Positions 8,661 through 34,586 are shown, numbered from the stretch's first letter. The stretch: DNA of 64,000 nucleotides from an uncultured Bacilli bacterium (GCA_934133195.1 CAKPAZ010000004.1:3564-67563); one strand, 5' to 3'. Notes: generated from the sequence alone by a model not told the origin. A program made the numbers and translations.

Positions 8661-8668
8661 GAGTGATT

Positions 8669-10169: not shown

Positions 10170-10245
10170 GCACCCTTAGCTCAGTTGGTAGAGCAACTGA
10201 CTCTTAATCAGTGGGTCCAGGGTTCGAGTCCCTGAGGGTGTACCA
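10170..10245 (+). tRNA. tRNA-Lys (anticodon CTT)
   Basis: GCACCCTTAGCTCAGTTGGTAGAGCAACTGACTCTTAATCAGTGGGTCCAGGGTTCGAGTCCCTGAGGGTGTACCA. Canonical D and T arms, anticodon loop CTCTTAA, and encoded CCA. Confidence 0.9.
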
Positions 10246-10258
10246 TTTTTGAGATAAT

Positions 10259-10291
10259 AGGTCTGATACAAATTGTGTCAGACCTTTTTTC
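10259..10291 (+). terminator. Rho-independent terminator after tRNA-Lys
   Basis: aggtctgacac-aatt-gtgtcagacct followed by TTTTTTC. Confidence 0.7.
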
Positions 10292-10660
10292 TTTGCAGAT
10301 AGGAATTTTTATCCTTTCCGCCAGCAAGTTCCATAGTCTTGTATAAGTGTCAAACACATTTTGCAAGATTTTTTTCTATATATTACTATGTAACAAATTA
10401 TATTTTAATAAAATCTCACTTTAGTTTCGGCATTGTTCCGCAATTTATTTGTAATTTTCTAAAAAAAATGCTATAATCTTTAAAATACTTTAACAATTTG
10501 TGGTTGTGTCTACTAAATTATTATGTTTATAGATTAATTGATTCAAGAAATGTTCAAAGGCAACTTAGAAATCTTTAGAAGAAAAAATAAAAAACCTAGA
10601 CAAGGCTCAAAGAGAGAAATTAGCTAGGATGATTGATAAACTATAAAAGGCGGTGATACT

Positions 10661-11464
10661 ATGTCTGTAAATTCACATATTATTAATTCAAAATTTATAA
10701 TGAAACAATTCAAAATTAGTTCTATAGATGGTCAGGTTCATACCTTAGATATGACAAATCTTAAACTTTCTAGAAAAGGACCTGGTGAATTAGGAACGGA
10801 AGAAGGATATTATGATGACGAAACAGAAAAATACTTATCTGATTTATATGAAGGTCCTTTATCGAAGCTTTTAGAGAGCCTTATTGACAATCCAGACTAT
10901 GATCTTAGTCAGGATGATTGCAATTTAATCGGGGATTTTCTTGTTGCTTTGTATGCTAGAGATCCTGATATATTACCGAAAACATATGAAAAAACAGTTA
11001 TTGCTAAAGGACTAAATATTTCAATTAATGCATCCGAGTTAGTTAGAATTTGTAAAAGAACAAATTTAAGGAAAGAATTTTTCGATGACCATTTTCCAAT
11101 GATTCTTATCAATAATTCTTCAGTAGATTTTATTTCATCTGTTTATGGATGTTCTGTTACTATAAACAAAAATTCAGGTCAATTATGTTGGTATTTCCCT
11201 TTAACTCCAAGATTAGCTATACATTTTATTGATAATTCAGACTGGGAGAAGAATTTTAACAAAGTAACTCATGGTGAGATTAATGAAGACCAAGTAAAAT
11301 GTGTAGAGCACTTTAACGATCAAATGGCAGATTATGTTGATTTAAAAGTAAATGATGCAATAGATGATTCTCATGATATTTACTATTTGTTTTCAAATAA
11401 AGAAGATGAACTTAAAAGAATTAAAAATCGAATAAAAGCTGAAAGAAAAACTAAGGGTACATAA
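10661..11464 (+). CDS. Hypothetical protein, first gene of the accessory island
   Basis: ORF with an RBS (aaggcggtga) and an acidic middle region. No catalytic motif recognised. Confidence 0.5.
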   Translation: MSVNSHIINSKFIMKQFKISSIDGQVHTLDMTNLKLSRKGPGELGTEEGYYDDETEKYLSDLYEGPLSKLLESLIDNPDYDLSQDDCNLIGDFLVALYARDPDILPKTYEKTVIAKGLNISINASELVRICKRTNLRKEFFDDHFPMILINNSSVDFISSVYGCSVTINKNSGQLCWYFPLTPRLAIHFIDNSDWEKNFNKVTHGEINEDQVKCVEHFNDQMADYVDLKVNDAIDDSHDIYYLFSNKEDELKRIKNRIKAERKTKGT

Positions 11465-11678
11465 TTCTATCAAAATAGGTAATCTCATACATTTTAATTA
11501 TAACACACTATATGTTTATAGAACGTCTTTTTTTATACTGATATCAATTATGAGTAGTTGATCTAATAATCTACTTTTTTTGTTAGAATGCAATTAAAAA
11601 TGGTTGCAAATTAAAAATGCAACTTATTTTGGTTGCATTTTATTATTTGATATGATATAATAACCATGAGGTGATATT

Positions 11679-12506
11679 ATGAATACTAATTATGCCGCAA
11701 TAATTATGGATGTAATACAATCTAGAAAATACGATGAACAAGAAAGATTTAATATCCAAGAAAAATTATATAAAATAATTAAATTTATTAATAATTGTTA
11801 TAAAAATGAAATAGTTAAAGATTATGATTTTTCAGCAGGTGATTCTATCCAAGCCTTATTTAATAATGTAAGTGATGCTTTTAGTAGTTATTGTTTAATC
11901 AAAACTTTATTTTATCCATATAAAATTAGATGTGGTATCGGTTATGGACCCCTTAATCAAAAAATATTAGATGTAAATTATAACAACACTAACATGTTAG
12001 ATGGAGAAGCATATCACTATGCAATATCAGCTTTAAATGATTGTAAAGAAAAGAAATATAATTTTTTATTATATTCAAATAAAAATGAAAGTGATAATTT
12101 AGTTAATCAAATAATGAGTACAGTTGAAATCTTTACTTCAGAACATTCAACTAAACAAGCAGATGTTTTTGAACTATTTAACTTATTATATCCTTTAGAA
12201 AATAAAAATTCATTTAAAATAATTGATGAAAATATAGATTTTATCATTACAATGATAAAACAAAATATTCAATCTTATGAATTAGATGATTTAACACTGG
12301 TTAAACACGTATTATTAGATGATTTTAAGAATGATGCCAATACATCTAATTTTCCCACAAGAATAAATTCAATCTGTGCCCAGTTATTAAATGTAAGTAG
12401 ACAAAACATTGAAAAGATAAGAACTGTAGGCTTTTTTGATAAAATTAGAATACTAGAAAAATTAGTATTGGATTATATGAGAAATGAATATAAGGAGAGA
12501 GAATAG
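11679..12506 (+). CDS. SatD-like protein (tentative)
   Basis: N-terminal AAIIMDVIQSRKYDEQER resembles the IIGDIxxSR start of the SatD family. It is immediately followed by a DUF3307-like membrane protein, which is the usual SatD partner. Confidence 0.35.
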   Translation: MNTNYAAIIMDVIQSRKYDEQERFNIQEKLYKIIKFINNCYKNEIVKDYDFSAGDSIQALFNNVSDAFSSYCLIKTLFYPYKIRCGIGYGPLNQKILDVNYNNTNMLDGEAYHYAISALNDCKEKKYNFLLYSNKNESDNLVNQIMSTVEIFTSEHSTKQADVFELFNLLYPLENKNSFKIIDENIDFIITMIKQNIQSYELDDLTLVKHVLLDDFKNDANTSNFPTRINSICAQLLNVSRQNIEKIRTVGFFDKIRILEKLVLDYMRNEYKERE

Positions 12507-13235
12507 ATGACAGTATTTAAATTATTATTGATTGCTCACTTGTTTGGTGATTATTATTTCCAACCAACTTGCTTAGTTGAGAAAAAGAAGAATAGTATAA
12601 AAGAATTAATTATTCATGTTTTGATTTATACTTTATTTATTTTTCTAGTATTATTACTATTTGGTAATGTATGGGAGATTATAATTTGGTCAGTTATTGT
12701 GTTTGCAACACACTTTTTGATTGATTACATTAGAGTTAAATTAACAAAGAAATATAATGAATGTGTTTCATTTTGGAGTTTTATTGTTGATCAAATACTA
12801 CATATAGCTATAATCTTTATAATTTCATTAATTATTAAAGATGATTTGAATTCTATTGGAAGTGCTATTCACAATATTTCGTTTTTTAAAGATATTAATT
12901 TTAATAAAGTTATTACTTACTCTTTAGCATTTCTAATCATCTTAGCACCTGCGTCAGTATTTATCAAACATCTTTTTAATTATGTTTTCAATAAAAAAGG
13001 AATATGTGAAAATGTTGATTCCGATAATGTGGGATCACTAATTGGTTGGCTTGAAAGAGTAGTAATCTTACTACTTGGTATTCTTGGCATGTATGGCTCA
13101 ATTGCTTTAGTTTTAACTGCGAAGTCTCTCGCAAGATTTAAACAGTTGGAAAATAAAGAGTTTGCTGAGAAATATTTAGTGGGTACCTTAATAAGTTTAG
13201 TAATTGCCTTATTAACACTACTAATCATCAAATAA
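12507..13235 (+). CDS. DUF3307-like polytopic membrane protein (SatE-like partner)
   Basis: N-terminal HLFGDYYFQ (the HxxGDxxxQ signature). Multiple TM helices. Its start abuts the stop of the upstream gene. Confidence 0.4.
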   Translation: MTVFKLLLIAHLFGDYYFQPTCLVEKKKNSIKELIIHVLIYTLFIFLVLLLFGNVWEIIIWSVIVFATHFLIDYIRVKLTKKYNECVSFWSFIVDQILHIAIIFIISLIIKDDLNSIGSAIHNISFFKDINFNKVITYSLAFLIILAPASVFIKHLFNYVFNKKGICENVDSDNVGSLIGWLERVVILLLGILGMYGSIALVLTAKSLARFKQLENKEFAEKYLVGTLISLVIALLTLLIIK

Positions 13236-13746: not shown

Positions 13747-15060
13747 ATGAAAAGAAATATATTAGAATTATACTACAATTATGAAGCAATAAATGAAAGC
13801 ATAAATTTCATTGCTCCATTAATTATAGAACGTAAAAATAAATTAAAAAGAAAACTAGATGATACCAAACAATTTTATGATATTGTTAAAAAAATTAGTG
13901 ATGTTATCAGGGAATTTAAGCCGACTGATGAACTTAATGAAAATGAAATTAAGGAAATTAATATAAAAATAACAAATAAATTATTAGATTTAGGATTAGC
14001 TACTATTAATGAAAATAATGAATTTACATTTAATATAAAGGAAGATATTGAACCGGTTAAAAATATAGATGAAGTAATAGATTCTTTAAGAGCAAGTAAT
14101 AGAAATAAAAGATTCTTATTTAATAATGCTGTTGTAAACTGTGTTACATCTTATGAACAATTTGTTGGATTTCTATTTAAAAGTTTTTATTTTCAAAATT
14201 CAAATTGTGTGTGTAAAAAAGCTTTAACATTTGAAGAATTGAAAGAAATTGGTTCAGTAGAAGAGGCAAAAAATTATTTAATTAATAGAGAAATTAAAGA
14301 TTTAATGTATGGTAGCATTGATGACTGGCAAAAACATTTCAAAAATAATATTAAAATTAAAATAAATCATTATGAAAACAACATAAAAGAAATTAATGAG
14401 ATATTTTTACGAAGAAATTTAATAGTGCATAATAGTTCAATCGTTAATTCCATTTATTTAAAGGAAATTGGAAATAGCGATTATAAAATAGATGACCCAA
14501 TAGAAAGTTCAACTGAATATATTAATAATGTTCAAAAGTTGTTGTTTGTAAACGCATTTTATTTAGGAATATTTTGTATTGATAAAATGGGTTACTCCAA
14601 GGATGAGAAACTAGAAATTGCAAATACTTTTTCTTTTATAGCATTTAATATGATGAAAAATGGAAAGTGGGAGCAAGCAAAAATAATATATTCAATAATC
14701 AAAGAATTTGAATTATTTTCTAAAGAAGTGAAAGAAATGCACAATATTAATTATTTATTATGCCGCGTTAATTTAAATGAAGATAATATTTATGAAGAAA
14801 TAGAAAAAATTGATTTTAGTGACAAATCAAATTTCTTAAAAATGGGATATTTTGCTCTAATGTTGAAAAAGGATGAATTAATTGAAACAATTAAATTAAT
14901 GGGAACTGAGGTCCGTACAGACATGATAAATGAGTGGCCAGTTTTTTTTAGAGTAAGAGAAGATAAGAAATATTATAATAAAGTTATAAAAGTAATTAAT
15001 CAAAAGCATGATGAAAATAAAGACTTGATAAAAATTAATTTAGGTGGTAATAAAAGCTAA
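13747..15060 (+). CDS. Hypothetical protein with a HEPN-like RNxxxH motif (Abi-like)
   Basis: 437 aa. Contains FLRRNLIVHNSS (Rx4-6H, as in AbiD/F, AbiU2 and LsoA-type HEPN RNases). RBS aggaga. Confidence 0.35.
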   Translation: MKRNILELYYNYEAINESINFIAPLIIERKNKLKRKLDDTKQFYDIVKKISDVIREFKPTDELNENEIKEINIKITNKLLDLGLATINENNEFTFNIKEDIEPVKNIDEVIDSLRASNRNKRFLFNNAVVNCVTSYEQFVGFLFKSFYFQNSNCVCKKALTFEELKEIGSVEEAKNYLINREIKDLMYGSIDDWQKHFKNNIKIKINHYENNIKEINEIFLRRNLIVHNSSIVNSIYLKEIGNSDYKIDDPIESSTEYINNVQKLLFVNAFYLGIFCIDKMGYSKDEKLEIANTFSFIAFNMMKNGKWEQAKIIYSIIKEFELFSKEVKEMHNINYLLCRVNLNEDNIYEEIEKIDFSDKSNFLKMGYFALMLKKDELIETIKLMGTEVRTDMINEWPVFFRVREDKKYYNKVIKVINQKHDENKDLIKINLGGNKS

Positions 15061-15123: not shown

Positions 15124-15684
15124 ATGATTGAAATAGAAGAATTTGAATACCTATCAAAAAAATATACACCTTATATTAATAGTTTGATTGAGAAAAATAA
15201 AAAGTTTTATAAATTGAACTCACCTATAAAATGGCAATTCGGTTTTAATGAAAAATTAGCTTTTTTTGCATGGTCAGATAAAAATACTAATTTGATTACA
15301 CTAAACATTGCATCTGTTGATTATTCAATTCAAAATAATCAAAATTTATTAGTTGAGTTGTTTTTATTACACGAAATGAGACATGTATATCAATATCAGG
15401 AAGCTGAATTATATATTAGTAATCCTTTGATATGTGAAAACATAGAAATGGCTAAAAAATGGTATTACGAATTTCAAGAATATGTTCCCGCTTCAGATAA
15501 TAATAAAAATTTTAACTATTATTTACAGGAATCGGAAAAAGATGCATTTGTTTATTCCTATGCAATAATTATGTATAAGTATGGAAAAGTAGAATACTTA
15601 AATATTCCAAAAGCATATGAAGGACCTAAAATTAAAAAAGAAATTAATAATTTAATGGTCATGTTCAAAAATAAAAAACTATAG
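15124..15684 (+). CDS. Small zincin-like metallopeptidase (HExxH)
   Basis: LLHEMRHVYQ HExxH motif, with a downstream Glu (YLQESEKDAF) as a possible third ligand. 186 aa. RBS ggagaaaa. Confidence 0.45.
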   Translation: MIEIEEFEYLSKKYTPYINSLIEKNKKFYKLNSPIKWQFGFNEKLAFFAWSDKNTNLITLNIASVDYSIQNNQNLLVELFLLHEMRHVYQYQEAELYISNPLICENIEMAKKWYYEFQEYVPASDNNKNFNYYLQESEKDAFVYSYAIIMYKYGKVEYLNIPKAYEGPKIKKEINNLMVMFKNKKL

Positions 15685-15827: not shown

Positions 15828-17165
15828 ATGAGAAATTTGGAACATAATAATAACAATATTTATTTTATAGATAAATTATTAGAGGATAATTTTTACTCAA
15901 AAATAGTTGATAATTATATTCCTTGTATTATTGAAAAAGGAAATCTTCAGGATAATAATAGTGATTTATATATAAAAACTATTTTAGCATCTCAAACGAA
16001 GGATATAGAAAAAACATGGATGATTAACAATTTAGTACACTCTGCATCAAACGATGTATTTAATTGTATAGTTAGTTATAATTATAAATTCAATACGCTA
16101 TATGGAATTAATCCATTTCTTATGGATGATTATAGTACTGTGTTTGTAGAACAGAAAAATTTATATGTTTTGGATATGGTATATAATGATTCTGGAACAA
16201 TAAATAAACCTGCTATATTGAAAAATGAAAATAATAATATTTACATTTATTATGACGTTTTAAAAGAAAAACTTCAAAAAAATGCATTTTCTAATAACTA
16301 TAAAATGTATGCAGAAATAGAATATAGAGAATATGTAGATCAATTTTATATGAATAAACAAATCGAAAAGATTAATAATGGATATATTGACGTACAATGT
16401 TTTAAAGAAGATGATGGTAAGAACATCTTATGGATACGAGCAACCATTGAAATTGATGTTGATCGTTTACTAGATAAAATATGCACAAAAAGAAAATTCG
16501 AAAATTTAAATATTAAAGTTGTAGAGTTAGAAAGCGGTAAAATTAGAGATCTAAATACTAATAATTATGATGATGATATTAGTGCTGGACTCATTGTATT
16601 TAAGAAAGAGGCATATCAAGTATTATCAAAATATTATTATTTTTATGATATGATGTTAGTATCGAAAAACAATGAATTAGATTTATGTTTAATTGATAAT
16701 CTAGAAGATTGTTTTGTGTTTTGGGAAGGAGAATTCAATAGCAAGATACCTATTGAAATAAAAAGAGAATTAGCAAAATACAACGATAAAAATAGAAAGG
16801 TAGGAATAATTAGTAAAGGAATGTATGAATGGCAATTGAATGCTAATTGGAACTATATAGATGATGCATTACCTAATGAAAAATTAGCTAGTTACATTAG
16901 AAATAACTATTTAGCACAAGCTTTGGAAATTGGGTTAGATTTTTACCCTCCGAAAAGTAATGAAGAATATGGTGATTTTGTTAATTTAATATTTAAAATA
17001 CTTAAAATTTCATATAAAGATTTAAAAATTTCAAATGAAAAAATAGAATTATTAGAAAAAATAAGAAATAAGTCTGAAGTTTTTGCAAATCAAGATTTAT
17101 TATATAAAAACTACCAAGGTTTTTGTAATCTAATTAATAGGGTTGTTGAAAATGCAAATAACTAG
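15828..17165 (+). CDS. Hypothetical 445-aa protein, translationally coupled to the downstream OLD-like nuclease
   Basis: RBS aaaggatgag. Its 3' end overlaps the next ORF by 23 nt. No known motif. Confidence 0.5.
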   Translation: MRNLEHNNNNIYFIDKLLEDNFYSKIVDNYIPCIIEKGNLQDNNSDLYIKTILASQTKDIEKTWMINNLVHSASNDVFNCIVSYNYKFNTLYGINPFLMDDYSTVFVEQKNLYVLDMVYNDSGTINKPAILKNENNNIYIYYDVLKEKLQKNAFSNNYKMYAEIEYREYVDQFYMNKQIEKINNGYIDVQCFKEDDGKNILWIRATIEIDVDRLLDKICTKRKFENLNIKVVELESGKIRDLNTNNYDDDISAGLIVFKKEAYQVLSKYYYFYDMMLVSKNNELDLCLIDNLEDCFVFWEGEFNSKIPIEIKRELAKYNDKNRKVGIISKGMYEWQLNANWNYIDDALPNEKLASYIRNNYLAQALEIGLDFYPPKSNEEYGDFVNLIFKILKISYKDLKISNEKIELLEKIRNKSEVFANQDLLYKNYQGFCNLINRVVENANN

Positions 17166-18426
17166 AGATGAATTCTTGAATAGTATTAAAACATCTAACT
17201 CTTCGTTATTTTGTATAGTTGGCCCTAATTATTCTGGAAAAACATATTTATTAAAAAATTTTTTTGAAAACTATATCACAATTGGTGGATTACTTATAGA
17301 TGAAACAGGTAAAGTAAGAAGAAAAGTTGCTACTGACGAAATTTTTATTTCAAGTGACAATAATTATTATATTTATCAGGATAAAAAGCAAAGAGGTAAA
17401 GATCATACTGCTAATGGCTCAAAAGTTGCACTTGATGAAGCATCAAAGGAAATAATAAAGGTTGTAAAAAAATACAAAGATAGAATTATCAATTTTTTAC
17501 AAAATGGAAAGCCTGAATCTCTTGGGATATCAAAAATAATGAATATAATAAATATTTTATTATCAACTAACTTAAACAATATATCCTATGTTATTATTGA
17601 TGAACCTGAAAATTCATTAGATGATAATAATCTTAAAATAGTGATAGAATTTATAAACACATTAATTTTATTCAAAAAGAAAGTAGTAATTGTTACTCAT
17701 AGTCCAAGATTACTTGAGCTAATGAAAGTAGAAGTTGATAATATATATAAAGTTAATGATCTAATGGGAAAAATACAAAATTTAAAGTTTACAGATGTTG
17801 AAAAGATCTATATTGATTGTGGTAGTGAATTAAAAGAAGTACCTGGCTATAAAAGCCTTTATATTTCTGATATAATTCAATTCAACGCTGGCGAAATTTT
17901 TCGTAATTTATATATTAATTACGTTCTAAAATCACAAGATTTTTATAGGGTATTATTCTACAATGATGTAGTATTAATGGAAGGCAAAACTGAAGAATTT
18001 ATTATTAGAGAGACAAAATATTCAAAAAAATACTCAAAAAATGTGTATTATATGGAGGGAAAATATAAAGCTTATTTTTTAATTGAGTTGTTTAGTAATT
18101 ATTGTAATCAAGTTAATTGTTTTATGGATAGGGATAAAAAAAGCAAACTAGATGATAATAATAATTTTTCTTATCAAATGAATGATACTTTTAAAAGAAA
18201 ATACAATAATAATTTAAAAGTCAAAATTTTTTACTTCAATAATAATATTGAAGATGAACTTGGTGTTGACATAAATGAGGTAATGATAGATTTTGTGGGT
18301 GAAGAAAATAAAAATAATAAACGATGCAAAAAAAATTTAAAACCATTTATTTCATTGAGGTACTTACAAAAACATCCAGAATGCATCGAAAATCTTGATT
18401 CACTAACAAATGAATTTAATTTTTAA
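17143..18426 (+). CDS. Compact OLD-family protein: ABC-type ATPase fused to a TOPRIM nuclease
   Basis: Walker A GPNYSGKT, signature-like SLGISKIM, Walker B YVIIDEPENSLDD and H-loop VTHSP. C-terminal TOPRIM VVLMEGKTEE ... FMDRDKK (E plus DxD). Confidence 0.6.
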   Translation: MLKMQITRDEFLNSIKTSNSSLFCIVGPNYSGKTYLLKNFFENYITIGGLLIDETGKVRRKVATDEIFISSDNNYYIYQDKKQRGKDHTANGSKVALDEASKEIIKVVKKYKDRIINFLQNGKPESLGISKIMNIINILLSTNLNNISYVIIDEPENSLDDNNLKIVIEFINTLILFKKKVVIVTHSPRLLELMKVEVDNIYKVNDLMGKIQNLKFTDVEKIYIDCGSELKEVPGYKSLYISDIIQFNAGEIFRNLYINYVLKSQDFYRVLFYNDVVLMEGKTEEFIIRETKYSKKYSKNVYYMEGKYKAYFLIELFSNYCNQVNCFMDRDKKSKLDDNNNFSYQMNDTFKRKYNNNLKVKIFYFNNNIEDELGVDINEVMIDFVGEENKNNKRCKKNLKPFISLRYLQKHPECIENLDSLTNEFNF

Positions 18427-18884: not shown

Positions 18885-19189
18885 CGTTATTACTTACCAT
18901 AACTCTTTTTTTACCATAAAAGCACAAAAGCATAAAATATTTTATAGAACCATTAAACCTCATAAGTAAATAAGGTGATTCATTAAGGCTTTTTTAATAC
19001 ATCCGATAACTCATTTTATAGTGTAATTTTCCAAATATTGTAAAATTTGAAATATTAATTATTATGGCATAAGATAATTTGTTAAAAATAGCAAAATCTT
19101 GCAATAATTTATGTATTATGATAAAATTTTATATGAACATATCAAAAAATATATTCACTTTAAAAAATTTTATTATAGGAGCGAGAAAA

Positions 19190-25193: not shown

Positions 25194-26663
25194 ATGGCAG
25201 TTACAAATTTAGTAAAAAGAATACAAGATATTATGAGAAATGACGCTGGCGTTGATGGTGATGCACAACGAATTAGTCAAATGACGTGGATGTTTTTCTT
25301 AAAAGTTTATGATGCTAAGGAAGAAGAATGGGAATTTTATGATGAAAATTATCAAAGTTTAATTCCTAATGAGCTAAAATGGAGAAATTGGGCAATAGAT
25401 GACCATAGTAATAATGTAATTACCGGTGAAAAACTATTAGATTTAGTTAATAATAAACTATTTCCTACTTTAAAAAATCTTGAGATAACCCCAGAAACAC
25501 CGCTAAAGCAACGCATTGCAAAATATGTTTTCGAAGATGCACAAAATTATATGAAAGATGGTGTTTTACTTAGACAGGTAATTAATGTAATAAATGAAGT
25601 TGATTTTTCTGAATATAAAGAAAGACATGAATTTGGTGCAATTTATGAAACAATTTTAAAAAGCTTACAAAGTGCTGGAAATGCTGGTGAATTTTATACG
25701 CCGCGTGCTGTTACAGATTTTATGGTTCAGATGATAAAGCCAAAACTTGGTGAGTCTGTCGCAGATTTTGCATGTGGTACAGGTGGATTTTTAACTTCAA
25801 CTTTAAAATATCTTGAGCCACAAAAAAAATCTACAGAGGATGTTGACAAATATAACAACACAATTTATGGAATTGAAAAAAAGCCAATGCCTTATTTACT
25901 TTGTATAACAAATATGTTAATACATGATGTTGATGAACCTAAAATTTATCACATGAATTCCTTAGAAAAAAATGTAAGAGATTACAAAGAAGAAGATAAA
26001 TTTGATATTATTTTAATGAATCCACCTTACGGAGGATCAGAAAAAGAAGCTGTTAAGAATAATTTTCCTGCAGATTTAAGAAGTAGTGAAACAGCAGATT
26101 TATTCATGAATGTTATCATGTATCGTTTAAAGAAAAATGGTCGTTGTGCTGTAATTATTCCAGATGGCTTTCTATTTGGAGAAGATAACGCAAAAGTTGC
26201 TATTAAGAAGAAACTATTAAATGAATTTAATTTACACACAATCATAAGAATGCCACATAGTGTTTTTGCTCCGTATACTTCCATAACGACTAATATATTA
26301 TTTTTTGATAATACTAAATCAACTGATGAAACATGGATATATCGTATGGACATGCCTGAGGGATATAAAAATTTTTCAAAAAATAAACCTATAATGCTAG
26401 AACATTTTGCTCCTGCTATTGAATGGTGGAATAATAGAAAAGAATTAATAATTGACGAATTTCCTAAAGCAAAGAAATATACAAAAGAAGATATTATAAA
26501 ATTAAATTATAATTTAGATTTATGTGGTTATCCACATATTGAAGAAGAAATTTTAGAACCAAAAGATTTAATCCATCAATTTAAAGAGCGAAGAGATTCT
26601 TATAACGCGGAGATTGAGAGAACACTGGCAAAAATATTGGAGATTTTAGATGAAGACAATTAA
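25194..26663 (+). CDS. hsdM: Type I R-M N6-adenine DNA methyltransferase M subunit
   Basis: HsdM_N (RISQMTWMFFLKV), SAM-binding DFACGTGGFL, and catalytic NPPYGG. Confidence 0.9.
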   Translation: MAVTNLVKRIQDIMRNDAGVDGDAQRISQMTWMFFLKVYDAKEEEWEFYDENYQSLIPNELKWRNWAIDDHSNNVITGEKLLDLVNNKLFPTLKNLEITPETPLKQRIAKYVFEDAQNYMKDGVLLRQVINVINEVDFSEYKERHEFGAIYETILKSLQSAGNAGEFYTPRAVTDFMVQMIKPKLGESVADFACGTGGFLTSTLKYLEPQKKSTEDVDKYNNTIYGIEKKPMPYLLCITNMLIHDVDEPKIYHMNSLEKNVRDYKEEDKFDIILMNPPYGGSEKEAVKNNFPADLRSSETADLFMNVIMYRLKKNGRCAVIIPDGFLFGEDNAKVAIKKKLLNEFNLHTIIRMPHSVFAPYTSITTNILFFDNTKSTDETWIYRMDMPEGYKNFSKNKPIMLEHFAPAIEWWNNRKELIIDEFPKAKKYTKEDIIKLNYNLDLCGYPHIEEEILEPKDLIHQFKERRDSYNAEIERTLAKILEILDEDN

Positions 26664-28221
26664 AAATTTAACTGCAAATGAATTAAGAAAATCAATTCTT
26701 CAATTAGCTATTCAAGGGAAACTTGTAAAACAAGATCCAAATGATGAGCCGGCCAGTGAGCTTGTCAAAAAAATTTATGAAGAAAAAAAGAAATTAATTG
26801 AAGAAGGTAAAATAAAAAAAGACAAAACAGAATCAATTATTTTTAAAGGTGATGATAATTGTTATTATGAGAAGATAGGTAATAATGATCCTATAAAACT
26901 TGAGGATTTACCTTTTGATATTCCTGATAATTGGATGTGGATACGACTTAAGAATTCTTCAATATTAAATGGTGGTTATGCATTCAAAAGTGATAAATTT
27001 TCTAAAGAAGGAGTTAGAGTGATCCGTATATCTGATTTCAATGAAAATGGAATTCTTAATAAGGATATTAAACGCTATCCATATTCAATAGAATTAGAAC
27101 AATATAAAATTTTAGAGAAAGATATTTTATTATGTATGACTGGTGGTACAGTTGGAAAATCTGTATATATTAATTCACTTAATGAAGATTCATATATAAA
27201 TCAACGTGTTGCATTAATACGTATATTTAAAATATTATCTAAATATTTTTATGTATATTTAGTGTCACCGAATACTGCCGATATAATTAATAAAAATAAA
27301 AATAGTACAAATGATAATATCTCCATGAAATTAATTGAAGACTTTCTAATTCCACTACCACCATTAGAAGAACAACAACGTATTGTAGATAAGATTAATT
27401 CATTTGAACCATTATTAGAAAAATATGAAAAAATAGAAAAAGAATTATCAAAACTAGAAAAAGAGTTTCCTGAAAAACTTAAAAAATCCATTTTACAATA
27501 TGCTATTGAAGGGAAACTAGTTAAGCAAGATCCTAACGATGAACCTGCTTCAGTCTTACTTGAACGAATAAAACAAGAGAAAGAAAGACTAATTAAAGAA
27601 GGTAAAATTAAGCGTGACAAGTATGAATCATACATCTATCAAGGTGATGATAAAAATTATTATGAGAAGATCTGTAATACGGTTAATAATATTGAAATTC
27701 CATTTGAAATTCCAAACAAATGGATATGGATTAAATCACATCAGATAATGAAACCAGTTCAATACGGATATAATGGCCCAGGTTTATCAAACGGGAAATT
27801 TAAATTATTAAGAATAAGTGATATTCAAAATGGTAATGTCAATTGGAAAACACTACCATATTGCAATATTTCTGAACAACAAGTAAATATTTATCAGATT
27901 CAAAAAAATGATATTTATATTGCAAGAACTGGTGGAACAATAGGTAAATCATTTAGACTAGCTGTAGATATGCCTAATGTTGTTTTTGCGGGATATTTAA
28001 TTAGATTTTCTTTTATCGAACAAAGAATAAGTAAATATATTAATTTGTTTCTAAATACACCTTTATATTGGAATCAGGTTGCAGATAAATCTGCAGGTAC
28101 TGGTCAACCTAATATTAACGGTGTATCATTAAGTAACTTATTAGTTCCGATACCTTCTTATAATGAACAAGAACGTATTCTAAATAAAATCAATTATTTA
28201 TTTCAAAAAATAGATTGTTAA
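26650..28221 (+). CDS. hsdS: Type I R-M specificity subunit, the expressed copy
   Basis: Two TRDs separated by a conserved central coiled-coil region (LKKSILQYAIEGKLVKQDPNDEPASVLLERIKQEKERLIKEGKIK) that duplicates the N-terminal conserved region. It overlaps the hsdM stop. Confidence 0.85.
   Translation: MKTIKNLTANELRKSILQLAIQGKLVKQDPNDEPASELVKKIYEEKKKLIEEGKIKKDKTESIIFKGDDNCYYEKIGNNDPIKLEDLPFDIPDNWMWIRLKNSSILNGGYAFKSDKFSKEGVRVIRISDFNENGILNKDIKRYPYSIELEQYKILEKDILLCMTGGTVGKSVYINSLNEDSYINQRVALIRIFKILSKYFYVYLVSPNTADIINKNKNSTNDNISMKLIEDFLIPLPPLEEQQRIVDKINSFEPLLEKYEKIEKELSKLEKEFPEKLKKSILQYAIEGKLVKQDPNDEPASVLLERIKQEKERLIKEGKIKRDKYESYIYQGDDKNYYEKICNTVNNIEIPFEIPNKWIWIKSHQIMKPVQYGYNGPGLSNGKFKLLRISDIQNGNVNWKTLPYCNISEQQVNIYQIQKNDIYIARTGGTIGKSFRLAVDMPNVVFAGYLIRFSFIEQRISKYINLFLNTPLYWNQVADKSAGTGQPNINGVSLSNLLVPIPSYNEQERILNKINYLFQKIDC
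26860..26892. repeat. IR-A, left copy (33 nt perfect), in the 5' conserved region of hsdS
   Basis: tgttattatgagaagataggtaataatgatcct. Its exact reverse complement occurs at 31439..31471, with extended similarity to about 26960 and 31370. Confidence 0.8.
27541..27617. repeat. IR-B, left copy (77 nt perfect), in the central conserved region of hsdS
   Basis: gaacctgcttcagtcttacttgaacgaataaaacaagagaaagaaagactaattaaagaaggtaaaattaagcgtga. Its exact reverse complement occurs at 30699..30775, with about 90% identity over about 160 nt. Confidence 0.85.
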
Positions 28222-28794
28222 CCTTTTTAACAATTTTATGTTGTTCTGATAAAGGAGGAATTGGTATCGCATAGTTCATTATAACTTTAGGATATAATTC
28301 TATTTGATTTGTACTACCTTCATACCTTTCTTCAACATAATCAAAAATTATAGGTGATCTTAAATATAAGTATACATATTCTGGATTAATTTCTTTTTGA
28401 ATTAATCGAATTGTTGTTATATGTGAATCATAAACAATAATATTGTGATTGGAAAAAGACTTTATTTTAAGATATTAACTCTTCCAACAGTTCCTGTACC
28501 AGTTGAATTGATTATAATATCATTTATGTTAGAAATTTGCTGTGCATTATAACTAATAAATGATAATCCATCTATATATAAAGCTTTATTTAATGATAAT
28601 ATTCCGTCTTTTTGATTGCATTTTTGTGCAATTACGGGAATTGTTTTATTAACAGAATATTTAGGAGATTTTCCTCGCTTGATAAATTCTGAAATATTAA
28701 TTAATTTTGTGATTTTCCATCCAATTGGAATTGAATAATCTTTTAATTTAGATAGAAACATCTTATAATAATTTATATATAAAAAAGACTTCAA
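28190..28794 (-). pseudogene. Silent, disrupted hsdS cassette (alternative TRD) convergent on the hsdS 3' end
   Basis: The minus-strand translation gives a TRD (…GKSPKYSVNKT…STGTGTVGRVNILK), an in-frame stop near 28462, then in another frame …EINPEYVYLYLRSPII…IPIPPLSEQHKIVKK. The 3' end overlaps the hsdS 3' end. There is no start or promoter. Confidence 0.5.
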
Positions 28795-28822
28795 TGAATT
28801 TAAGTGTTCATTGAAGTCTTTT
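28782..28822. terminator. Hairpin terminator downstream of the recombinase gene
   Basis: aaaagacttcaatgaa-ttta-agtgttcattgaagtcttttt. Confidence 0.5.
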
Positions 28823-28825
28823 TGA

Positions 28826-29629
28826 TTACCAAGTTACTATTTCATCAACTAATTTTTGTTGTTCACTTGCAGTTTTTCTAAGATATATTCGTGTTGTTTC
28901 AATAGATTCATGTCCCATTAAATCTGCTAATAAAGATATATCATTATATTTCTCTAAAAAATTCTTTGCAAATCTATGTCTAAACGAATGGGGATATACA
29001 ACTTTAGGATCTATACCATATTTAATTGCATAGTTCTTTAATTGTTGAGAAATTCCTCTAGTTGTAATTCTTTCTCCAAATCTATTAAGAAAGATATATC
29101 CAGATTCAATCTCTAAATCATTTTCTATCCATTTAATTGTTTCTTTTCTTAAAGCAAGTGGAATATAAATTCTTCTAACCTTTCCACCTTTAGAATAGAT
29201 ATCTATATAACCAACTTTTACATGTTCAACTTTTATTTTAATTAATTCGCTAATTCTAGCACCAGTTGCACATAAGAATCTAACTATGAAATACCATTCG
29301 ATATTAGGTTCTTTTTTTAATTTTTTCTTAAAAAAAACGTAATCAGCATCACTAATTACGTTTTCAAGGAACATTTTTTGTTGCACCTTTATAGATTTGA
29401 GCCTTAAATTATCTTTTCCGATAAATTCCAAATACTTATTCATAGCTTGAATTTTAAGATTAACAGATTTAGCCTTAAAATTTTCTATTAAATAAGTTTT
29501 CCATAGAAGTAAATATTTCTTATTTACTTCATCAAATAATTCTTTGTATCCCTGTATAGCAATTAAATAAGCGGATACTGTGTTCTTAGCAAGATTTTTT
29601 GCTAATAAAAACTGTTTAAATTTTTCCAT
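28826..29629 (-). CDS. Tyrosine site-specific recombinase (XerC/D-like), probably the shufflon invertase
   Basis: ATGARISE (Arg), HSFRHRFA (HxxR), and GHESIETTRIYL (catalytic Tyr). Embedded between hsdS cassettes. Confidence 0.85.
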   Translation of the reverse strand: MEKFKQFLLAKNLAKNTVSAYLIAIQGYKELFDEVNKKYLLLWKTYLIENFKAKSVNLKIQAMNKYLEFIGKDNLRLKSIKVQQKMFLENVISDADYVFFKKKLKKEPNIEWYFIVRFLCATGARISELIKIKVEHVKVGYIDIYSKGGKVRRIYIPLALRKETIKWIENDLEIESGYIFLNRFGERITTRGISQQLKNYAIKYGIDPKVVYPHSFRHRFAKNFLEKYNDISLLADLMGHESIETTRIYLRKTASEQQKLVDEIVTW

Positions 29630-29696
29630 TAATTTTACCTCCTTATGGACGATAAAATTATATCATTTAATTATTAATTTTCTTTTTATGAACACA

Positions 29697-30195
29697 ATAT
29701 AAAAATTATTATGAGAATTTACCAATCGGCTGGGTCAAATGTTGTTTATCAAATGTAGCTAAAATTATTATGGGACAATCTCCTAATGGTAATACTTATG
29801 GTAATATTGGAACTGAATTCCATCAAGGTAAAATGTTTTTTACTGATAGAATAATTGGAATTTCTAATGTCAAAACTTCAACTCCAATCAAAGTCACCTC
29901 AAAATATTCGCTAGTTATGTCAGTTAGAGCTCCTGTTGGAGATGTAAATTATTGTAATAGAGAAATATGCATAGGTCGTGGATTGTGTTCAATTGAATGT
30001 TTTGTACCAGAACTAACTGATTATCTTTATATTATATTGAAAGCAAATAGTAAGTTTTTTAAGGATAAATCGACTGGGACAACATTTAAAGCGATAAATA
30101 TGGATGTTATAGCATCATTACCAATATTACTTCCTCCATTGAATGAACAAAAAAGTATAGCAAGTAAAATTAATAAAATAAATATGTATTTATAG
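29697..30195 (+). pseudogene. Silent hsdS fragment (alternative C-terminal TRD) in direct orientation
   Basis: It begins with aaaaattattatgaga (the DKNYYE junction repeat). It encodes a TRD ending LLPPLNEQKSIASKINKINMYL, resembling the hsdS C-terminus. It lacks an upstream conserved region and start context. Confidence 0.5.
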
Positions 30196-30698
30196 AATCT
30201 ATTCTCTCACATATTCTTTTCTGTTCTTCTATAGGTGGTAAAAAAATAATTCGAGCCAAAATTTCTTTTCTATCTATTCCGGGTATTAAACTCTTTGCAT
30301 TAGCATTAAGTGAGGAGACAATTGTATTAAGATAGAGTATTAGAAATGAATTTAAAATATATGACTTAATAGACATAAATTGTCTAGCAATATGAATATC
30401 TCCAATACTATTTATAGCTATTTTTCCTATAGTTCCTTTGCATGAAAGCAATATTTCGTTTTTTCGTGAGTTTACATGTTTACAACTTGTATATCTATTT
30501 ATTATTATTTTGTTGTTTTCATCAATATTACTTGCACCAGTAATATATGGAATACCTATATTTTTATTCGAGTAATCATTTTGACTTAAATCTGTTCCTG
30601 ACGTTAGCGTAATTATTTGATGCATATAACACCTAATCCACCCCATATTCTCATAATAATTTTTATCATCACCTTGATAGATGTATGATTCATGCTTC

Positions 30699-30775
30699 TC
30701 ACGCTTAATTTTACCTTCTTTAATTAGTCTTTCTTTCTCTTGTTTTATTCGTTCAAGTAAGACTGAAGCAGGTTC
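30699..30775. repeat. IR-B, right (inverted) copy
   Basis: Exact reverse complement of 27541..27617. Confidence 0.85.
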
Positions 30776-31438
30776 GTCATTAGGATCTTGTTTTACTAAT
30801 TTTCCTTCAATTGCGTATTGAAGAATAGATTTCTTTAGTTTATCTGGAAATTCTGATTCAAGAATAGATAATTTATTTTCAATATTATCATAATGTTGAA
30901 TTAAAGGTTCAAACAAATTAATTTTTTTGACAATTCTTTTTTGTTCATTTAGTGGTGGAAGTGGAAATAAATAATCTCCAACTGTAGATAGACTTAAGAA
31001 AATTTGATTTGTTGTTCCGTTTGCTGATTTCTCTATATTAGTTCGATTCAAAAATAAAAATTTATATAACATAACTGAAGTAATTTCGTCAAATAAACGA
31101 AATACAAACAAATGTCCATCGGTTAAAACATCTGTTCTGTCTAATTGATATAAACCGCATCTACCCAATGTCCCATGACCTAAGGTATTTAATAAAACAT
31201 CATATTTTCTTAAATAATAATATTCTGGCATATTTATCACAAATTCATCAGTGCAATATTTAGCAAGTTTAAAATCTATTTCAATTCCACTATTTGCTGC
31301 TTGTCCAATAGCTATATTATTTGTAATCTCTTTTGAGTATTTTGGAGATTTTCCGCTATAAATCAATTTACATAAATTTTTTAACCTAATCCAAACCCAA
31401 TTATTTGGAATATCAAAAGGTAAATCTTCTAACTTTAC

Positions 31439-31471
31439 AGGATCATTATTACCTATCTTCTCATAATAACA
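31439..31471. repeat. IR-A, right (inverted) copy
   Basis: Exact reverse complement of 26860..26892. Confidence 0.8.
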
Positions 31472-31663
31472 ATTATAAAATCATATAGAAATGAAGGTAT
31501 ATAATCTAATATGTTAAAAATTAAATCTAATTAAAACGTATAAAATTAAAATAATATACATATACTATTATATACAATTTTTTTAAGCGTAACAAAATGT
31601 TACGATTTCAAGTTTTTTTCTTGACTTAAACAGTAAATTTTGATATAATGAGGTGAAAAAATA

Positions 31664-33043
31664 ATGAAAAGGGAAAAAATTATGAAAAATTTAATAATTA
31701 AATTAGAAAGCATTAGAATGGTTAATTTTAAAAATATTGCTAAGAGTGAAATATCTTTTTCAGATAAAGGCAAAATATTAAATACTATAGGTATATATGG
31801 ACAAAATGGGAGTGGCAAGACATCTGTTGTTGAATCTATAAATATTTTAAAATCGTTATTAATGGACATACCATTTCAAAAAGATTTATATTATTATATT
31901 AATATAGGATCCAATGAGTTAGCATTAGATTATAAATTTATACTTATTAAAGAAAAAGAAAAATATACCGTTAAATATTCTGTAAAATTTGAAAAAAAAA
32001 TAAAAATTGATACTGAAAAAAATATTGATGAGAAAAAAACGGTTCTATCAAAGGAAAAAATCGAAATATTCGATACAACTGAAAATTTATTAGCATATAT
32101 AGAGTTTAAAAATGAGGAAAAAAAAATTTCATGTAATTATGCAGATCATAATTTTGAAAACTATGACGGTATTATAACAAAAGATATTGCTATTGCAACT
32201 TCGCATGTTTCCAAACAATTATCAAAAACAATGATTTTTCAGCAAATGTTTAGGGATAATATAAGAAAAAGTGTACTTTTAAAATCCGTTTTAAACGCAA
32301 TGCATTTTTATGCTACTACTAATTTGTTTGTGATAGGAATGAAGGAAACTAGTTTGATCTCTGCAATTGATAATTTACCATTAAATATTCGTACATCTGG
32401 TAATGAAGATTTGATTACCTCTGGAACTATACCTTTGAATTTATTTGGCCCATCTATTATCCCTGGCGTTATTTTGAATACTATTACGCCTGAACTTGAC
32501 CAAATCAATATAGTAATGGGGCAATTAATTCCTGGAATAAAAATTGGTTACAAAAAAATTAGTGAAGGATTAGACAAAAATGGTAATATAATAGTAACGA
32601 TTCAATTAGTTTCAATTATAGGAGATTTGCAAATTCCTTTAAAGTACGAATCAGAAGGTGTAAAAAAATTAATAGCCCTATGTAGTGTTTTAATTGGAAT
32701 GTACAATAATGAGTCTGTATGTCTAGTAGTTGATGAATTAGATTCTGGAATTTTTGAATATTTGTTAGGTGAACTAGTTAAAATTATCCATGAAGATGCT
32801 AAGGGACAGTTAATCTTTACATCACATAATTTGAGATTACTTGAAGTTTTACCTAAGCAGTGCATCATATTCTCTACCACTAATCCAAAAAAACGATTTA
32901 TTAAAATGGCTAATGTAAAACCAAACCATAATTTAAGAGATTTTTATTATAGAACTATTCTTTTAGGAGGACAAAAAGAAGAATTATATGATGAAACAGA
33001 CGAATTAGAAATAGAAAGAGCATTAAGGAAATGTCAAATTTAA
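31664..33043 (+). CDS. AbiLi/RloA-like AAA ATPase (AAA_21/ABC-type)
   Basis: Walker A GIYGQNGSGKTS, Walker B LVVDELDSGI, and H-loop FTSHN. RBS gaggtg. 13-nt overlap with the next gene. Confidence 0.7.
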   Translation: MKREKIMKNLIIKLESIRMVNFKNIAKSEISFSDKGKILNTIGIYGQNGSGKTSVVESINILKSLLMDIPFQKDLYYYINIGSNELALDYKFILIKEKEKYTVKYSVKFEKKIKIDTEKNIDEKKTVLSKEKIEIFDTTENLLAYIEFKNEEKKISCNYADHNFENYDGIITKDIAIATSHVSKQLSKTMIFQQMFRDNIRKSVLLKSVLNAMHFYATTNLFVIGMKETSLISAIDNLPLNIRTSGNEDLITSGTIPLNLFGPSIIPGVILNTITPELDQINIVMGQLIPGIKIGYKKISEGLDKNGNIIVTIQLVSIIGDLQIPLKYESEGVKKLIALCSVLIGMYNNESVCLVVDELDSGIFEYLLGELVKIIHEDAKGQLIFTSHNLRLLEVLPKQCIIFSTTNPKKRFIKMANVKPNHNLRDFYYRTILLGGQKEELYDETDELEIERALRKCQI

Positions 33044-33759
33044 ATAGGAAAAGTTTAATTCTGTTTATAGTTGAAGGCAAAAGTGATAAAGTATATTTAT
33101 CTCCTATCAAAAAAATGGTAGAGCGTCGATCCAATAGTAAAATTAAATTTAAGGTTATGTATGGTGATATATTAACAAATTTCGATACTGATCCTAATTA
33201 TATTGAAAACGAAGTTGCAATGGTAATACAAGAATATTTGGAATTGTTTGGACTTGAACTTGAAGACATTAAACAAGTTGTTCATATAGTTGACTTAGAT
33301 GGTTGTTTTGTTAATTCAAAAAAAATTATAAATGATAAATCTTTAGAAAAAGGTCATACAATTTATTATAGAGATAAAATTGCAAATTTTAATAGACAAA
33401 ATATTATAAAAAGAAATCAAAAAAAGGTTAGTTGTTTAGAAGTTTTACATAAATTAAATAAAATTAATTATGGAACTAAGGGAATGATTCCATACAGGAT
33501 ATATTATTTTTCAACAAACATAGATGATTATTTTTTTAACAATCAAAACTGCTCTAATGAGCAAAAAATAAATAATTCCGACTTAATACATGATAAATAT
33601 ATTGACAATCCTGAAGAATATAGACATATGATTGAAAGTAATTCTTGCGTGCCTGGCTCCTATGATGAAACATGGGAGTATATAAAAATAGAAAATAATT
33701 CATTAAGTAGATGCACAAATTTTAACAAATTTTTTATTGAGATTATTGATAAAATTTAA
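33031..33759 (+). CDS. AbiLii/RloB-like protein (OLD-type TOPRIM-like)
   Basis: N-terminal LILFIVEGKSDKVYL matches the RloB-family motif (iIvcEGekTEpnYf). About 240 aa. Coupled to the upstream ATPase. Confidence 0.6.
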   Translation: MSNLNRKSLILFIVEGKSDKVYLSPIKKMVERRSNSKIKFKVMYGDILTNFDTDPNYIENEVAMVIQEYLELFGLELEDIKQVVHIVDLDGCFVNSKKIINDKSLEKGHTIYYRDKIANFNRQNIIKRNQKKVSCLEVLHKLNKINYGTKGMIPYRIYYFSTNIDDYFFNNQNCSNEQKINNSDLIHDKYIDNPEEYRHMIESNSCVPGSYDETWEYIKIENNSLSRCTNFNKFFIEIIDKI

Positions 33760-33834
33760 AACTTTTAAAAATTAATACGTAAAAGTTTTAAATAAATTTA
33801 GCATTTTTTTGAATATGGTATAAAGTTATATATT

Positions 33835-34482
33835 ATGGGGAAATATTATAAAAGTTTAAAAAAAGTTAATTCTGAAATAATGAAATTAAGGATTAACAAT
33901 CTTTCAAAAGAAGAACATAAAAAGTATAAAATAAATAAATTTTTTAATATTCTTGCTGGAAGTATGTTTTTGGTAGAATGGTGTTTAATTCCATTCCTTA
34001 TGTTATTTCTACCAAAAGCATGTAAAGAACAAGTAGGATTAACGAAGTTTTTATATATTATTTTTATAATACTTGCTTTTGCATTGTTAATTTTTAATCT
34101 TATGTTAATTGACCGTTTTATTCCTTGTCCTAACATTACTAAACTTGATCCATCAATGTTTTCTGAGGTCAATAGAAGAAGATTTAAGAAATACGGAATA
34201 ACTGATAATTACATTATTACTAAATGCTATGATTCAACTAATCCAAAACTTATCAATAAGGATGTAATTATTTGCATTAATGAAAATAAACTAAAAATAA
34301 TCAACAATCTCTATCGTTCAATTTATGATTTTGGTTGTTATGAATTTGACTTAGATGAGATTAAATATGAAAATATAAAAGATGAAGGTTTAGTAAAAAC
34401 TAAAATTATAACTGATAAGATAACTTTTGTTTTAGGTCATAGAGCTAAAACATTCATCAAGAAGAATCAAAAATCAGATTAG
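33835..34482 (+). CDS. Hypothetical membrane protein
   Basis: ORF with two TM helices. No motif. Confidence 0.35.
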   Translation: MGKYYKSLKKVNSEIMKLRINNLSKEEHKKYKINKFFNILAGSMFLVEWCLIPFLMLFLPKACKEQVGLTKFLYIIFIILAFALLIFNLMLIDRFIPCPNITKLDPSMFSEVNRRRFKKYGITDNYIITKCYDSTNPKLINKDVIICINENKLKIINNLYRSIYDFGCYEFDLDEIKYENIKDEGLVKTKIITDKITFVLGHRAKTFIKKNQKSD

Positions 34483-34529
34483 AGTTAATCTGATTTTTTG
34501 TCATGCCTTAATAATAAAAAGCATAAACA

Positions 34530-34559
34530 TTGACAACCGACCGTTCGGTAGGTATAATA
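34530..34559 (+). promoter_or_regulatory. Sigma-A promoter with an embedded palindromic operator (probable TetR autoregulation site)
   Basis: TTGACA, then ACCGA-CCGT-TCGGT inverted repeat in the spacer, then TATAAT. About 27 nt upstream of the TetR gene. Confidence 0.5.
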
Positions 34560-34586
34560 TTATGGACTTAATTTTGGAGGAAGTTT

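Follow-up and report, generated by a model that had tools for sequence, protein, structure and literature searches.

A probable strain-variable defense hotspot between tRNA-Lys and a TetR operon in an uncultured gut Bacilli lineage

In a 64,000-nucleotide stretch of the genome of an uncultured Bacilli bacterium (GCA_934133195.1, CAKPAZ010000004.1:3564-67563; hereafter, the window), the DNA lying between pfk and the adjacent tRNA-Lys(CTT) gene on one side and a TetR operon on the other is, very probably, a strain-variable chromosomal anti-phage defense hotspot. Our analysis covered the region from tRNA-Lys to the TetR operon (10.3/10.5 to 34.4/34.5 kb), and window proteins were assigned to families on the basis of Pfam and PADLOC profile matches, together with sequence motifs. 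The region comprises approximately 10 apparently independent modules, nearly all of them co-directional with the flanks, with inter-module spacers of 200-650 nucleotides (nt). Comparison with related genomes places the left edge of this island at 10295-10500 and its right edge at 33840-34508, in agreement with the extent given in a preliminary description made from the sequence alone.

That description had proposed a defense island reaching from tRNA-Lys to the TetR promoter, and nearly all of the items that it listed were confirmed by Pfam, PADLOC, or motifs, among them the remnant of an ISL3 transposase. Its GIY-YIG gene proved to be UzuA, and its type IV-like enzyme an MrcB_N plus NOV_C protein. 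Two genes were missing from its list, i.e., one encoding a DUF4238 protein (10661-11464) and one encoding an AbiTii-domain protein (20308-21336). The reported lack of housekeeping genes stands, as our inventory counted zero between 10.5 and 34.5 kb. Strong matches were obtained for a type I restriction-modification (R-M) system, UzuA, AbiLi, and DUF4238, and candidate-level matches for a PDC-S36-like protein, AbiTii, a HEPN protein, and an OLD-like protein. Indeed, every island gene with an assignable family is of a defense type.

Compositional deviation, a check that the preliminary description had suggested, is likewise present. In 2-kb intervals, the GC content is 0.251 ± 0.019 in the island versus 0.319 ± 0.022 outside, GC at third codon positions (GC3) is 0.13-0.20 versus 0.21-0.32 in the flanks, and the tetranucleotide correlation with the flanks is reduced inside the island.

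Exchange of cargo between conserved flanks

The left flank ends with the core gene pfk, which encodes 6-phosphofructokinase (PFK; 8851-10080, plus strand; Pfam PFK 3.3e-58) and whose product is 97% identical at the amino acid (aa) level in relatives. It is followed by tRNA-Lys(CTT), the left landmark (10170-10245, plus strand; identified by ARAGORN and matching the Rfam tRNA model with 72 bits). A promoter/terminator scan placed a promoter-like site at 10126-10154 and a strong terminator at 10259-10285 on the same strand. One relative, L001, is a Hadza metagenome-assembled genome found by a PFK scan of one genome per species (97% aa identity of PFK). Further left-flank contigs were obtained through members of the same 90% PFK cluster, and right-flank contigs (L093, L094, and L099) through TetR homologues of 92-95% identity; a scan of JGI metagenomes with TetR returned one 1.5-kb contig only. 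The comparison therefore rests on about eight configurations, not on a pangenome.

Five contigs (L001, L082, L084, L086, and L087) are collinear with the window along the left flank. In the 6 kb that end at the tRNA, they share 97-98% identity with one another and are therefore probably conspecific; their identity to the window is ~90.7%, and the window represents a sister lineage. Behind the same pfk/tRNA-Lys, these five contigs carry five differing cargos. L001 follows the window from 3217 to 10500 at ~91% nt identity and then diverges into an XRE gene, a type I R-M system of another family (its HsdM is 25% identical), and SoFic. The cargo of L082 consists of LRR_5, Mrr_cat, Flg_new, IS3, a resolvase, and a 923-aa methyltransferase, and that of L084 of AbiEii, a Flg_new protein, SatD, an RNase III-like protein, and HATPase_c_3. 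L086 carries a helix-turn-helix gene, an EcoRI-type R-M system, ThsB_TIR, a caspase-like protein, a resolvase, and Eco57I/Tsp45I-like genes, and L087 a hydrolase and Fic/RhuM, even though these two contigs are 99.9% identical up to 437 bp beyond the tRNA. On the other side, the cargo upstream of TetR comprises AAA_5 plus RE_LlaJI, AAA_13, and a 1262-aa protein in L093, and CSD, the RnlA toxin, and LRR_5 in L094; in L099, a resolvase gene is all that precedes TetR before the contig ends.

Collectively, the slot is filled in every recovered contig of the two close lineages, and 7 of the 8 cargos of relatives include R-M, toxin, or Abi-type genes (R-M, AbiE, ThsB-TIR, SoFic/Fic, LlaJI, and RnlA). 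Had close relatives carried the same content here, the region would have to be regarded as core; instead, the cargo differs throughout. The proposed piecemeal acquisition of accessory DNA is borne out both by the five cargos behind nearly identical flanks and by single modules that recur elsewhere with sharp homology edges, namely SatD, the ISL3 remnant, the gene for a 215-aa protein at the right end, and a 94-nt leader. In addition, six contigs from related strains (L081, L083, L085, and L088-L090) stop right after pfk/tRNA-Lys, and many short contigs that stop after pfk are to be expected at a strain-variable site.

The right flank begins with the TetR promoter and its probable operator and continues with TetR (34587-35204), a C39 peptidase, a 189-aa protein, and a GyrI-like protein (34529-36925 overall, plus strand). 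It is ~91% identical in relatives, except for the GyrI-like gene; in L093, L094, and L099 this level of identity extends over the TetR operon, the radical SAM gene, and the genes for 5'-nucleotidase, DegV, and U32.

A genus-level relative, L003 (66% aa identity of PFK), has the order P-type ATPase, tRNA-Cys, C39-domain protein, pfk, and tRNA-Lys, followed directly by 5'-nucleotidase, DegV, and U32, which in the window lie from 41.1 kb onward. Relative to L003, window positions 10.3-41.0 kb are extra, whereas in the close lineages only 10.3-34.5 kb are hypervariable. We considered extending the island to 41 kb and rejected this, because the block from TetR to the radical SAM gene is ~91% conserved in the sister lineage and hence lies outside the hypervariable slot. 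The tRNA-Lys of L003 (11323-11398) is inverted, together with its promoter, relative to pfk, and the flanking gene order is kept.

Breakpoints, mobility, and alternative explanations

Downstream of the tRNA lies a conserved segment of ~250 bp (10246-10500, plus strand), which comprises the terminator and an extended -10 promoter (10449-10477; TTGTAA-17-TGcTATAAT) that points into the island. This post-tRNA segment also holds a CGGAAC...GTTCCG inverted repeat, which is degenerate in the window copy, and is kept in L001, where homology reaches 255 bp beyond the tRNA and into the island promoter region. The left breakpoints fall at 10295 (L084), 10323 (L086 and L087), 10397 (L082), and 10500 (L001), i.e., 50-255 bp past the tRNA, all of them after the terminator and none inside the tRNA. 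On the right, L093, L098, and L099 break at 34395, where 88 bp of the 215-aa gene remain, 110 bp upstream of the TetR promoter; L094 breaks at 34508, at that promoter, and has a complete 215-aa gene 2.4 kb further upstream. L093 (at its position 9807) and L098 share the 34395 breakpoint with L099 (at ~697) in spite of differing upstream cargo; this point may be one that recombination favors, or the truncation may go back to a common ancestor.

Immediately ahead of the DUF4238 start codon, 94 nt (10555-10648) are 93.6% identical to positions 13958-14051 of L082, which precede an unrelated 150-aa open reading frame (ORF) there. The two stretches resemble a common leader or promoter that serves different downstream genes.

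These boundaries bear on the most serious alternative, according to which the region is one decayed integrative element (an integrative and mobilizable element, an integrative and conjugative element, or a satellite) that had its attachment site, attB, over the 3' end and terminator of tRNA-Lys and has lost its integrase and distal att site. Its adjacency to a tRNA, low GC content, and ISL3 remnant are in keeping with such an origin, as is the finding that 18 of 41 defense hotspots in E. coli are tRNA loci used by mobile elements (PMC10121019). Moreover, extra copies of the post-tRNA segment occur in relatives. That of L086 (19170-19460) lies 7.8 kb downstream, begins at the CCA end, and holds the terminator and ~190 bp; L082 has a similar copy ~8 kb into its island plus partial ones, with extra copies located at 19845-19989 and 14828-14894, and L087 has one at 12407-12445. 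Small serine recombinase genes of the resolvase type (188-217 aa) are found in L082 (19979-20632), L086 (16158-16772), and L099 (20-586), those of L082 and L086 being 91% identical over 718 nt, and IS3 and ISL3 sequences occur in the hotspot islands. From the post-tRNA copies and the serine recombinases, it follows that site-specific insertion beside the tRNA probably takes place in this lineage. The post-tRNA segment itself may act at the boundaries of modules, as a cassette for recombination or regulation.

The window, however, has none of these recombinases, and we regard a decayed single element as unlikely there. Pfam and PADLOC detected no integrase, excisionase, conjugation, replication, or phage gene in the window, in which the lone recombinase belongs to the type I shufflon described below. 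No integrase borders either island edge (the first gene past the tRNA is that for DUF4238), and searches of the window by blastn-short, blastn, and repeat detection turned up neither the tRNA 3' end nor the post-tRNA segment a second time (E < 0.01). There are four left breakpoints in place of one, and the cargo is pieced together from modules that also occur separately. A megablast search of the whole island against plasmid and phage collections found no near-identical DNA, so no known carrier element can be assigned to it. For the window genome, a classical tRNA-integrated island was rejected because no att repeat was found. The island is without a working mobility function of its own and is now immobile.

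The preliminary description had named tRNA-Lys as the likely integration anchor and had looked to the right boundary for a partial repeat of its 3' end; no such repeat is present in the window. As an anchor, the tRNA gains support from the second copies in L086 and L082 and from the serine recombinases of relatives, and loses it through the scattered left breakpoints and the lack of an edge integrase or att site in the window. Likewise, the statement that no intact integrase exists holds at the tRNA, but the island does contain one intact tyrosine recombinase (28826-29629). We rejected this gene as an island integrase, since it is short and placed between inverted hsdS copies, and identify it as the invertase of the shufflon.

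It is much less probable still that the island is an assembly artefact in which core flanks were joined to low-GC DNA of another organism or element. In favor of such a join, the sequence comes from a MEGAHIT-style metagenome contig, related contigs break after pfk/tRNA-Lys, and a look-up of the exact PFK protein of the window found none on record elsewhere. That contig (L091; ENA ERZ27287428 k141_959209, 92.5 kb, human gut) matches window positions 24587-45204 at 100%. Against a false join, the stretch from AbiL through TetR as far as the radical SAM gene is found again, at 100% identity, in a separate Logan assembly (L092), foreign low-GC cargo occupies the slot of every related long contig, and homology with L001 continues for 255 bp beyond the tRNA, into the promoter region of the island. 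Furthermore, the leader, SatD, the ISL3 remnant, and the 215-aa gene are all found inside the islands of relatives at the same locus. The only other assemblies of the window strain match the window exactly.

Least credible of all is a general accessory-gene slot holding defense genes incidentally: although LRR_5, Flg_new, GNAT, alpha/beta hydrolase, and insertion sequence (IS) elements do occur in relatives, it fits poorly with the uniformly defense-type assignments in the window and with the 7 of 8 cargos bearing R-M, toxin, or Abi-type genes.

A strain-variable defense hotspot thus remains the reading that we favor. Its gene inventory, edges, deviating composition, and replacement of cargo from strain to strain are directly documented; several points nonetheless weigh against it. 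The anti-phage activity of the modules is in every case predicted from sequence, and the route of cargo transfer is one that we infer. The matches for AbiTii, AbiLii, HEPN, the OLD TOPRIM domain (20.5 versus 23.2 bits), and PDC-S36 are borderline or candidate-level. Since the slots of relatives contain non-defense cargo (LRR_5 and Flg_new surface proteins, GNAT, and alpha/beta hydrolase), the slot is not exclusive to defense. An empty site was not found in the two close lineages; it was seen only in L003, a genus-level relative with an inverted tRNA. Finally, the window is a metagenome contig whose right junction is backed by a second assembly (L092), and a second assembly of the window strain that spans the left junction was not found.

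Defense-type modules of the island

On the plus strand, the type I R-M system consists of hsdR (22866-25178; PADLOC REase_I 3.5e-303), hsdM (25194-26663; MTase_I 4e-180), and an expressed hsdS of 523 aa (26650-28221; Specificity_I 2.8e-112), all three of which are also recognized by Pfam. It is followed by a shufflon that extends over both strands (28462-31492) and contains an hsdS fragment (28462-28794, minus strand), the tyrosine recombinase (minus strand), a second hsdS fragment (29770-30195, plus strand), and a silent hsdS' (30170-31366, minus strand). Two inverted repeats are shared with the expressed hsdS, one of 337 nt and 84% identity (27335-27671/30645-30981) and one of 118 nt and 81% identity (26839-26956/31375-31492), and further inverted repeats of the shufflon measure 100 and 79 nt. 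The locus therefore unites hsdR, hsdM, and hsdS with inverted hsdS segments that share repeats and with a site-specific recombinase. If the tyrosine recombinase inverts hsdS segments, the specificity of HsdS would change. Type I R-M systems restrict unmethylated DNA, and the S. pneumoniae SpnD39III/ivr and Mycoplasma pulmonis hsd loci are the models of phase-variable type I systems. Like such shufflons, the window locus joins hsdRMS to inverted partial hsdS copies, which share repeats of 100-337 nt and enclose a short tyrosine recombinase; unlike them, it has a long HsdS (523 aa) and two extra short hsdS fragments around the recombinase, and it is known here from one arrangement.

Three further proteins gave strong matches. 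UzuA (Uzume), a GIY-YIG protein (19079-20083, plus strand), matches the PADLOC model at 1.3e-47 over profile positions 47-277 of 278; its Pfam GIY-YIG match is weak (residues 228-318), and its true start codon probably lies downstream of 19079. The AbiLi ATPase (31664-33043, plus strand; PADLOC 1.3e-31) overlaps the gene for an AbiLii/RloB-like TOPRIM protein (33031-33759, plus strand), which is weakly matched by PADLOC AbiLii (0.003) and bears a VEGKSDK motif. Uzume and lactococcal AbiL are validated defense systems; the mechanisms of DUF4238, Uzume, and AbiL are poorly known. The DUF4238 protein, encoded by the first gene of the island (10661-11464, plus strand), scores 48.5 bits against a Pfam cut-off of 27 (1e-12), and no PADLOC model matched it. 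A DUF4238 protein from a prophage hotspot protects E. coli against T7 (bioRxiv 10.1101/2021.01.21.427644), and the window gene, a candidate of this type of single-gene defense (Rousset et al.), shares both the domain and the defense-hotspot setting with it.

Two candidate modules precede the type I system. The AbiTii-domain protein (20308-21336, plus strand) is borderline in Pfam (3.2e-06; 27.9 bits versus a cut-off of 27.6) and reaches 1.6e-09 in PADLOC. The MrcB_N plus NOV_C protein (21397-22599, plus strand; Pfam 8e-43 and 7.7e-18; PADLOC PDC-S36 1.2e-38 and PD-T4-1 7e-20) is a candidate modification-dependent (type IV-like) nuclease, which would cut modified DNA.

On the tRNA side, SatD (11679-12506, plus strand; Pfam 7.5e-18) is followed by a DUF3307 multi-pass membrane protein (12507-13235, plus strand; 4.8e-22). 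The pair is found again in another defense island (L096, 11662-13388) at 58% and 51% identity, and SatD alone occurs in the L084 island of this hotspot (18865-19789; 90% aa identity, with window positions 11584-12510 at 93.5% nt identity). There, the homology stops exactly at the SatD stop codon, and a 51-aa ORF and the RNase III-like gene follow in place of DUF3307. A single-sequence structure model of SatD was unusable (predicted local distance difference test [pLDDT] 38.6). Conceivably, SatD is cyclase-like, and its pairing with DUF3307 would then recall a cyclase with a membrane effector. In S. pyogenes, satD is reported to be the sole accessory gene that scored essential in all transposon sequencing data sets (PMC11323703), a pattern that in our view would suit an antitoxin. 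SatD/DUF3307 is thus an uncharacterized pair that is possibly toxin-antitoxin-like or abortive-infection-like.

The next module couples a HEPN protein of the RiboL-PSP type (13747-15060, plus strand; Pfam 3.3e-07, 30.8 bits versus a cut-off of 28.4), which carries an RRNLIVH motif (Rx4H), with a 186-aa zincin-like protein (15124-15684, plus strand), which has the HExxH motif as HEMRH and a weak SprT-like match (0.15). Neither gene was matched by PADLOC or NCBIfam. The HEPN protein is a probable RNase, with the adjoining zincin perhaps serving as its control.

Of the remaining modules, the most distinctive is a two-gene pair. Its first gene encodes a 445-aa protein of no known family (15828-17165, plus strand), without a match in Pfam, PADLOC, NCBIfam, or PDB sequences. 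Its second, overlapping gene encodes a 427-aa protein with an ABC ATPase (Walker A, GPNYSGKT, including K33) and an OLD-type TOPRIM domain (17143-18426, plus strand), the latter falling below the Pfam cut-off. This OLD-like protein matches the GajA, PtuA, AriA, and Old models weakly (E 1e-5 to 1e-9) and in the ATPase part only, and a PDB sequence search returned generic ABC ATPases only. More broadly, PDB sequence searches gave no useful match for the 445-aa protein, SatD, or HEPN, and NCBIfam yielded no names for the uncharacterized island proteins.

The pair, including the overlap of its reading frames, is kept in three divergent contexts (L095 8001-10584, L096 8001-10584, and L097 8001-10626), with identities of 64%, 42%, and 40% for the 445-aa protein and of 63%, 33%, and 34% for its OLD-like partner (~420 aa, AAA_21/OLD-TOPRIM). 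Each of these contexts is itself a defense island, with R-M, DndB, AbiJ, SatD plus DUF3307, KAP NTPase, an SLFN-type helicase, or UzuA nearby. The 445-aa family is rare, being represented by 16 clusters among 5.8 billion proteins and by 99 representatives among 1.84 billion. Some of the 99 match the C-terminal half only, as ~220-aa proteins covering profile positions 226-441, and this half holds an invariant VFWEGEFN motif, of which WEGEF occupies residues 299-303. An AlphaFold (AF2) model of the 445-aa protein built from 16 sequences reached a pLDDT of 86.9, and a Foldseek search with it found no significant match in PDB or BFVD.

As an ATPase-plus-TOPRIM two-gene operon in a defense island, the pair resembles the OLD-family nucleases (class 1 standalone, class 2 with UvrD, retron-associated, and Gabija GajA/GajB) and PARIS AriA/AriB. 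It differs from OLD classes 1-4 in that its neighbor is an unrelated 445-aa protein and not a helicase, a reverse transcriptase, or GajB, and from PARIS in that the 445-aa partner is not AriB-like and the OLD-like protein is compact (~420 aa). With the TOPRIM match below the cut-off and no class-defining neighbor, we did not assign it to OLD classes 1-4. We consider the pair a candidate unclassified two-gene system of the OLD family, and the 445-aa protein would then be a new class of partner for OLD nucleases, perhaps a sensor. Tentatively, and with somewhat less than even confidence, we propose that the slot holds at least one defense system of an undescribed kind, with the 445-aa/OLD-like pair as the best candidate and SatD/DUF3307, in a toxin-antitoxin-like or abortive-infection role, as the second.

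The ISL3 transposase remnant (~18590-18830, minus strand) consists of the C-terminal part (Pfam DDE_Tnp_ISL3 PF01610, 1e-10, profile positions 185-240 of 240) and is also present in the L001 island at 90% identity. At the right end, the semi-conserved gene for the 215-aa predicted membrane protein (33835-34482, plus strand) is whole in L094 (92.6% nt identity), and only its last 88 bp are left in L093, L098, and L099. Rfam and Tandem Repeats Finder scans of the island found no CRISPR array, retron, ToxI-like repeat array, or other RNA.

Further observations concern the DNA outside the island. The spacer of the TetR promoter (34529-34557; TTGACA-17-TATAAT) has an ACCG-TT-CGGT inverted repeat, the probable TetR operator, which every relative retains. 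L093, L094, and L099 lack the GyrI-like gene (36426-36888) and 0.7 kb from within the first MatE gene (37485-38195); the MatE gene is intact in the window and truncated or split (103-220 aa) in these sister-lineage contigs. A second, small variable region with a GC content of 0.20-0.21 lies upstream of the P-type ATPase gene (1201-1798 and 2508-3217). The ORFs there (1333-1797, 1994-2542, and 2613-3155) are without a Pfam match and are partly shared with relatives, which have other small ORFs at this place.

Proposed turnover of the hotspot and its biological meaning

We envisage a fixed slot between two landmarks in which anti-phage systems would gather and be swapped among strains. Each module probably acts alone, through restriction of foreign DNA, attack by a nuclease or RNase, or abortive infection, and type I specificity would be diversified when the resident tyrosine recombinase inverts hsdS segments. 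The main route of turnover is probably homologous recombination, following DNA uptake, in the flanks and in short segments shared between modules. Site-specific or transpositional insertion by the tRNA, through the serine recombinases and IS elements seen in relatives, probably contributes occasionally.

Such an arrangement has precedents. In E. coli, hotspot #37 is occupied in 97% of genomes and holds 31 system types (Hochhauser et al. 2023, PMC10121019). Like this hotspot, the tRNA-linked hotspots of the same species, and the core hotspots of P. aeruginosa (Johnson et al. 2023, PMC10250203), the locus described here is a core-bounded slot with strain-differing defense cargo, side-by-side systems, and a tRNA edge. 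It differs in its host, an uncultured low-GC gut Bacilli lineage known from metagenomes only, in having no recognizable carrier, and in breakpoints that lie downstream of the tRNA instead of inside it. With tRNA-integrated genomic islands it shares tRNA adjacency and atypical composition, and its relatives duplicate the tRNA-distal segment. Unlike those islands, however, the window has no tRNA-side integrase or att site, and the recombinases of its relatives are small serine resolvases and not tyrosine integrases.

This locus documents a known type of hotspot in a human-gut Bacilli lineage without isolates, which is expected and not surprising. Its flanks, pfk/tRNA-Lys and the TetR promoter, are precise handles for collecting further cargo from gut metagenomes, and its content nominates the 445-aa/OLD-like, SatD/DUF3307, and HEPN/zincin modules from among the uncharacterized ones. 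Defense hotspots account for differences in phage sensitivity among close strains and are the main source of new immune systems.

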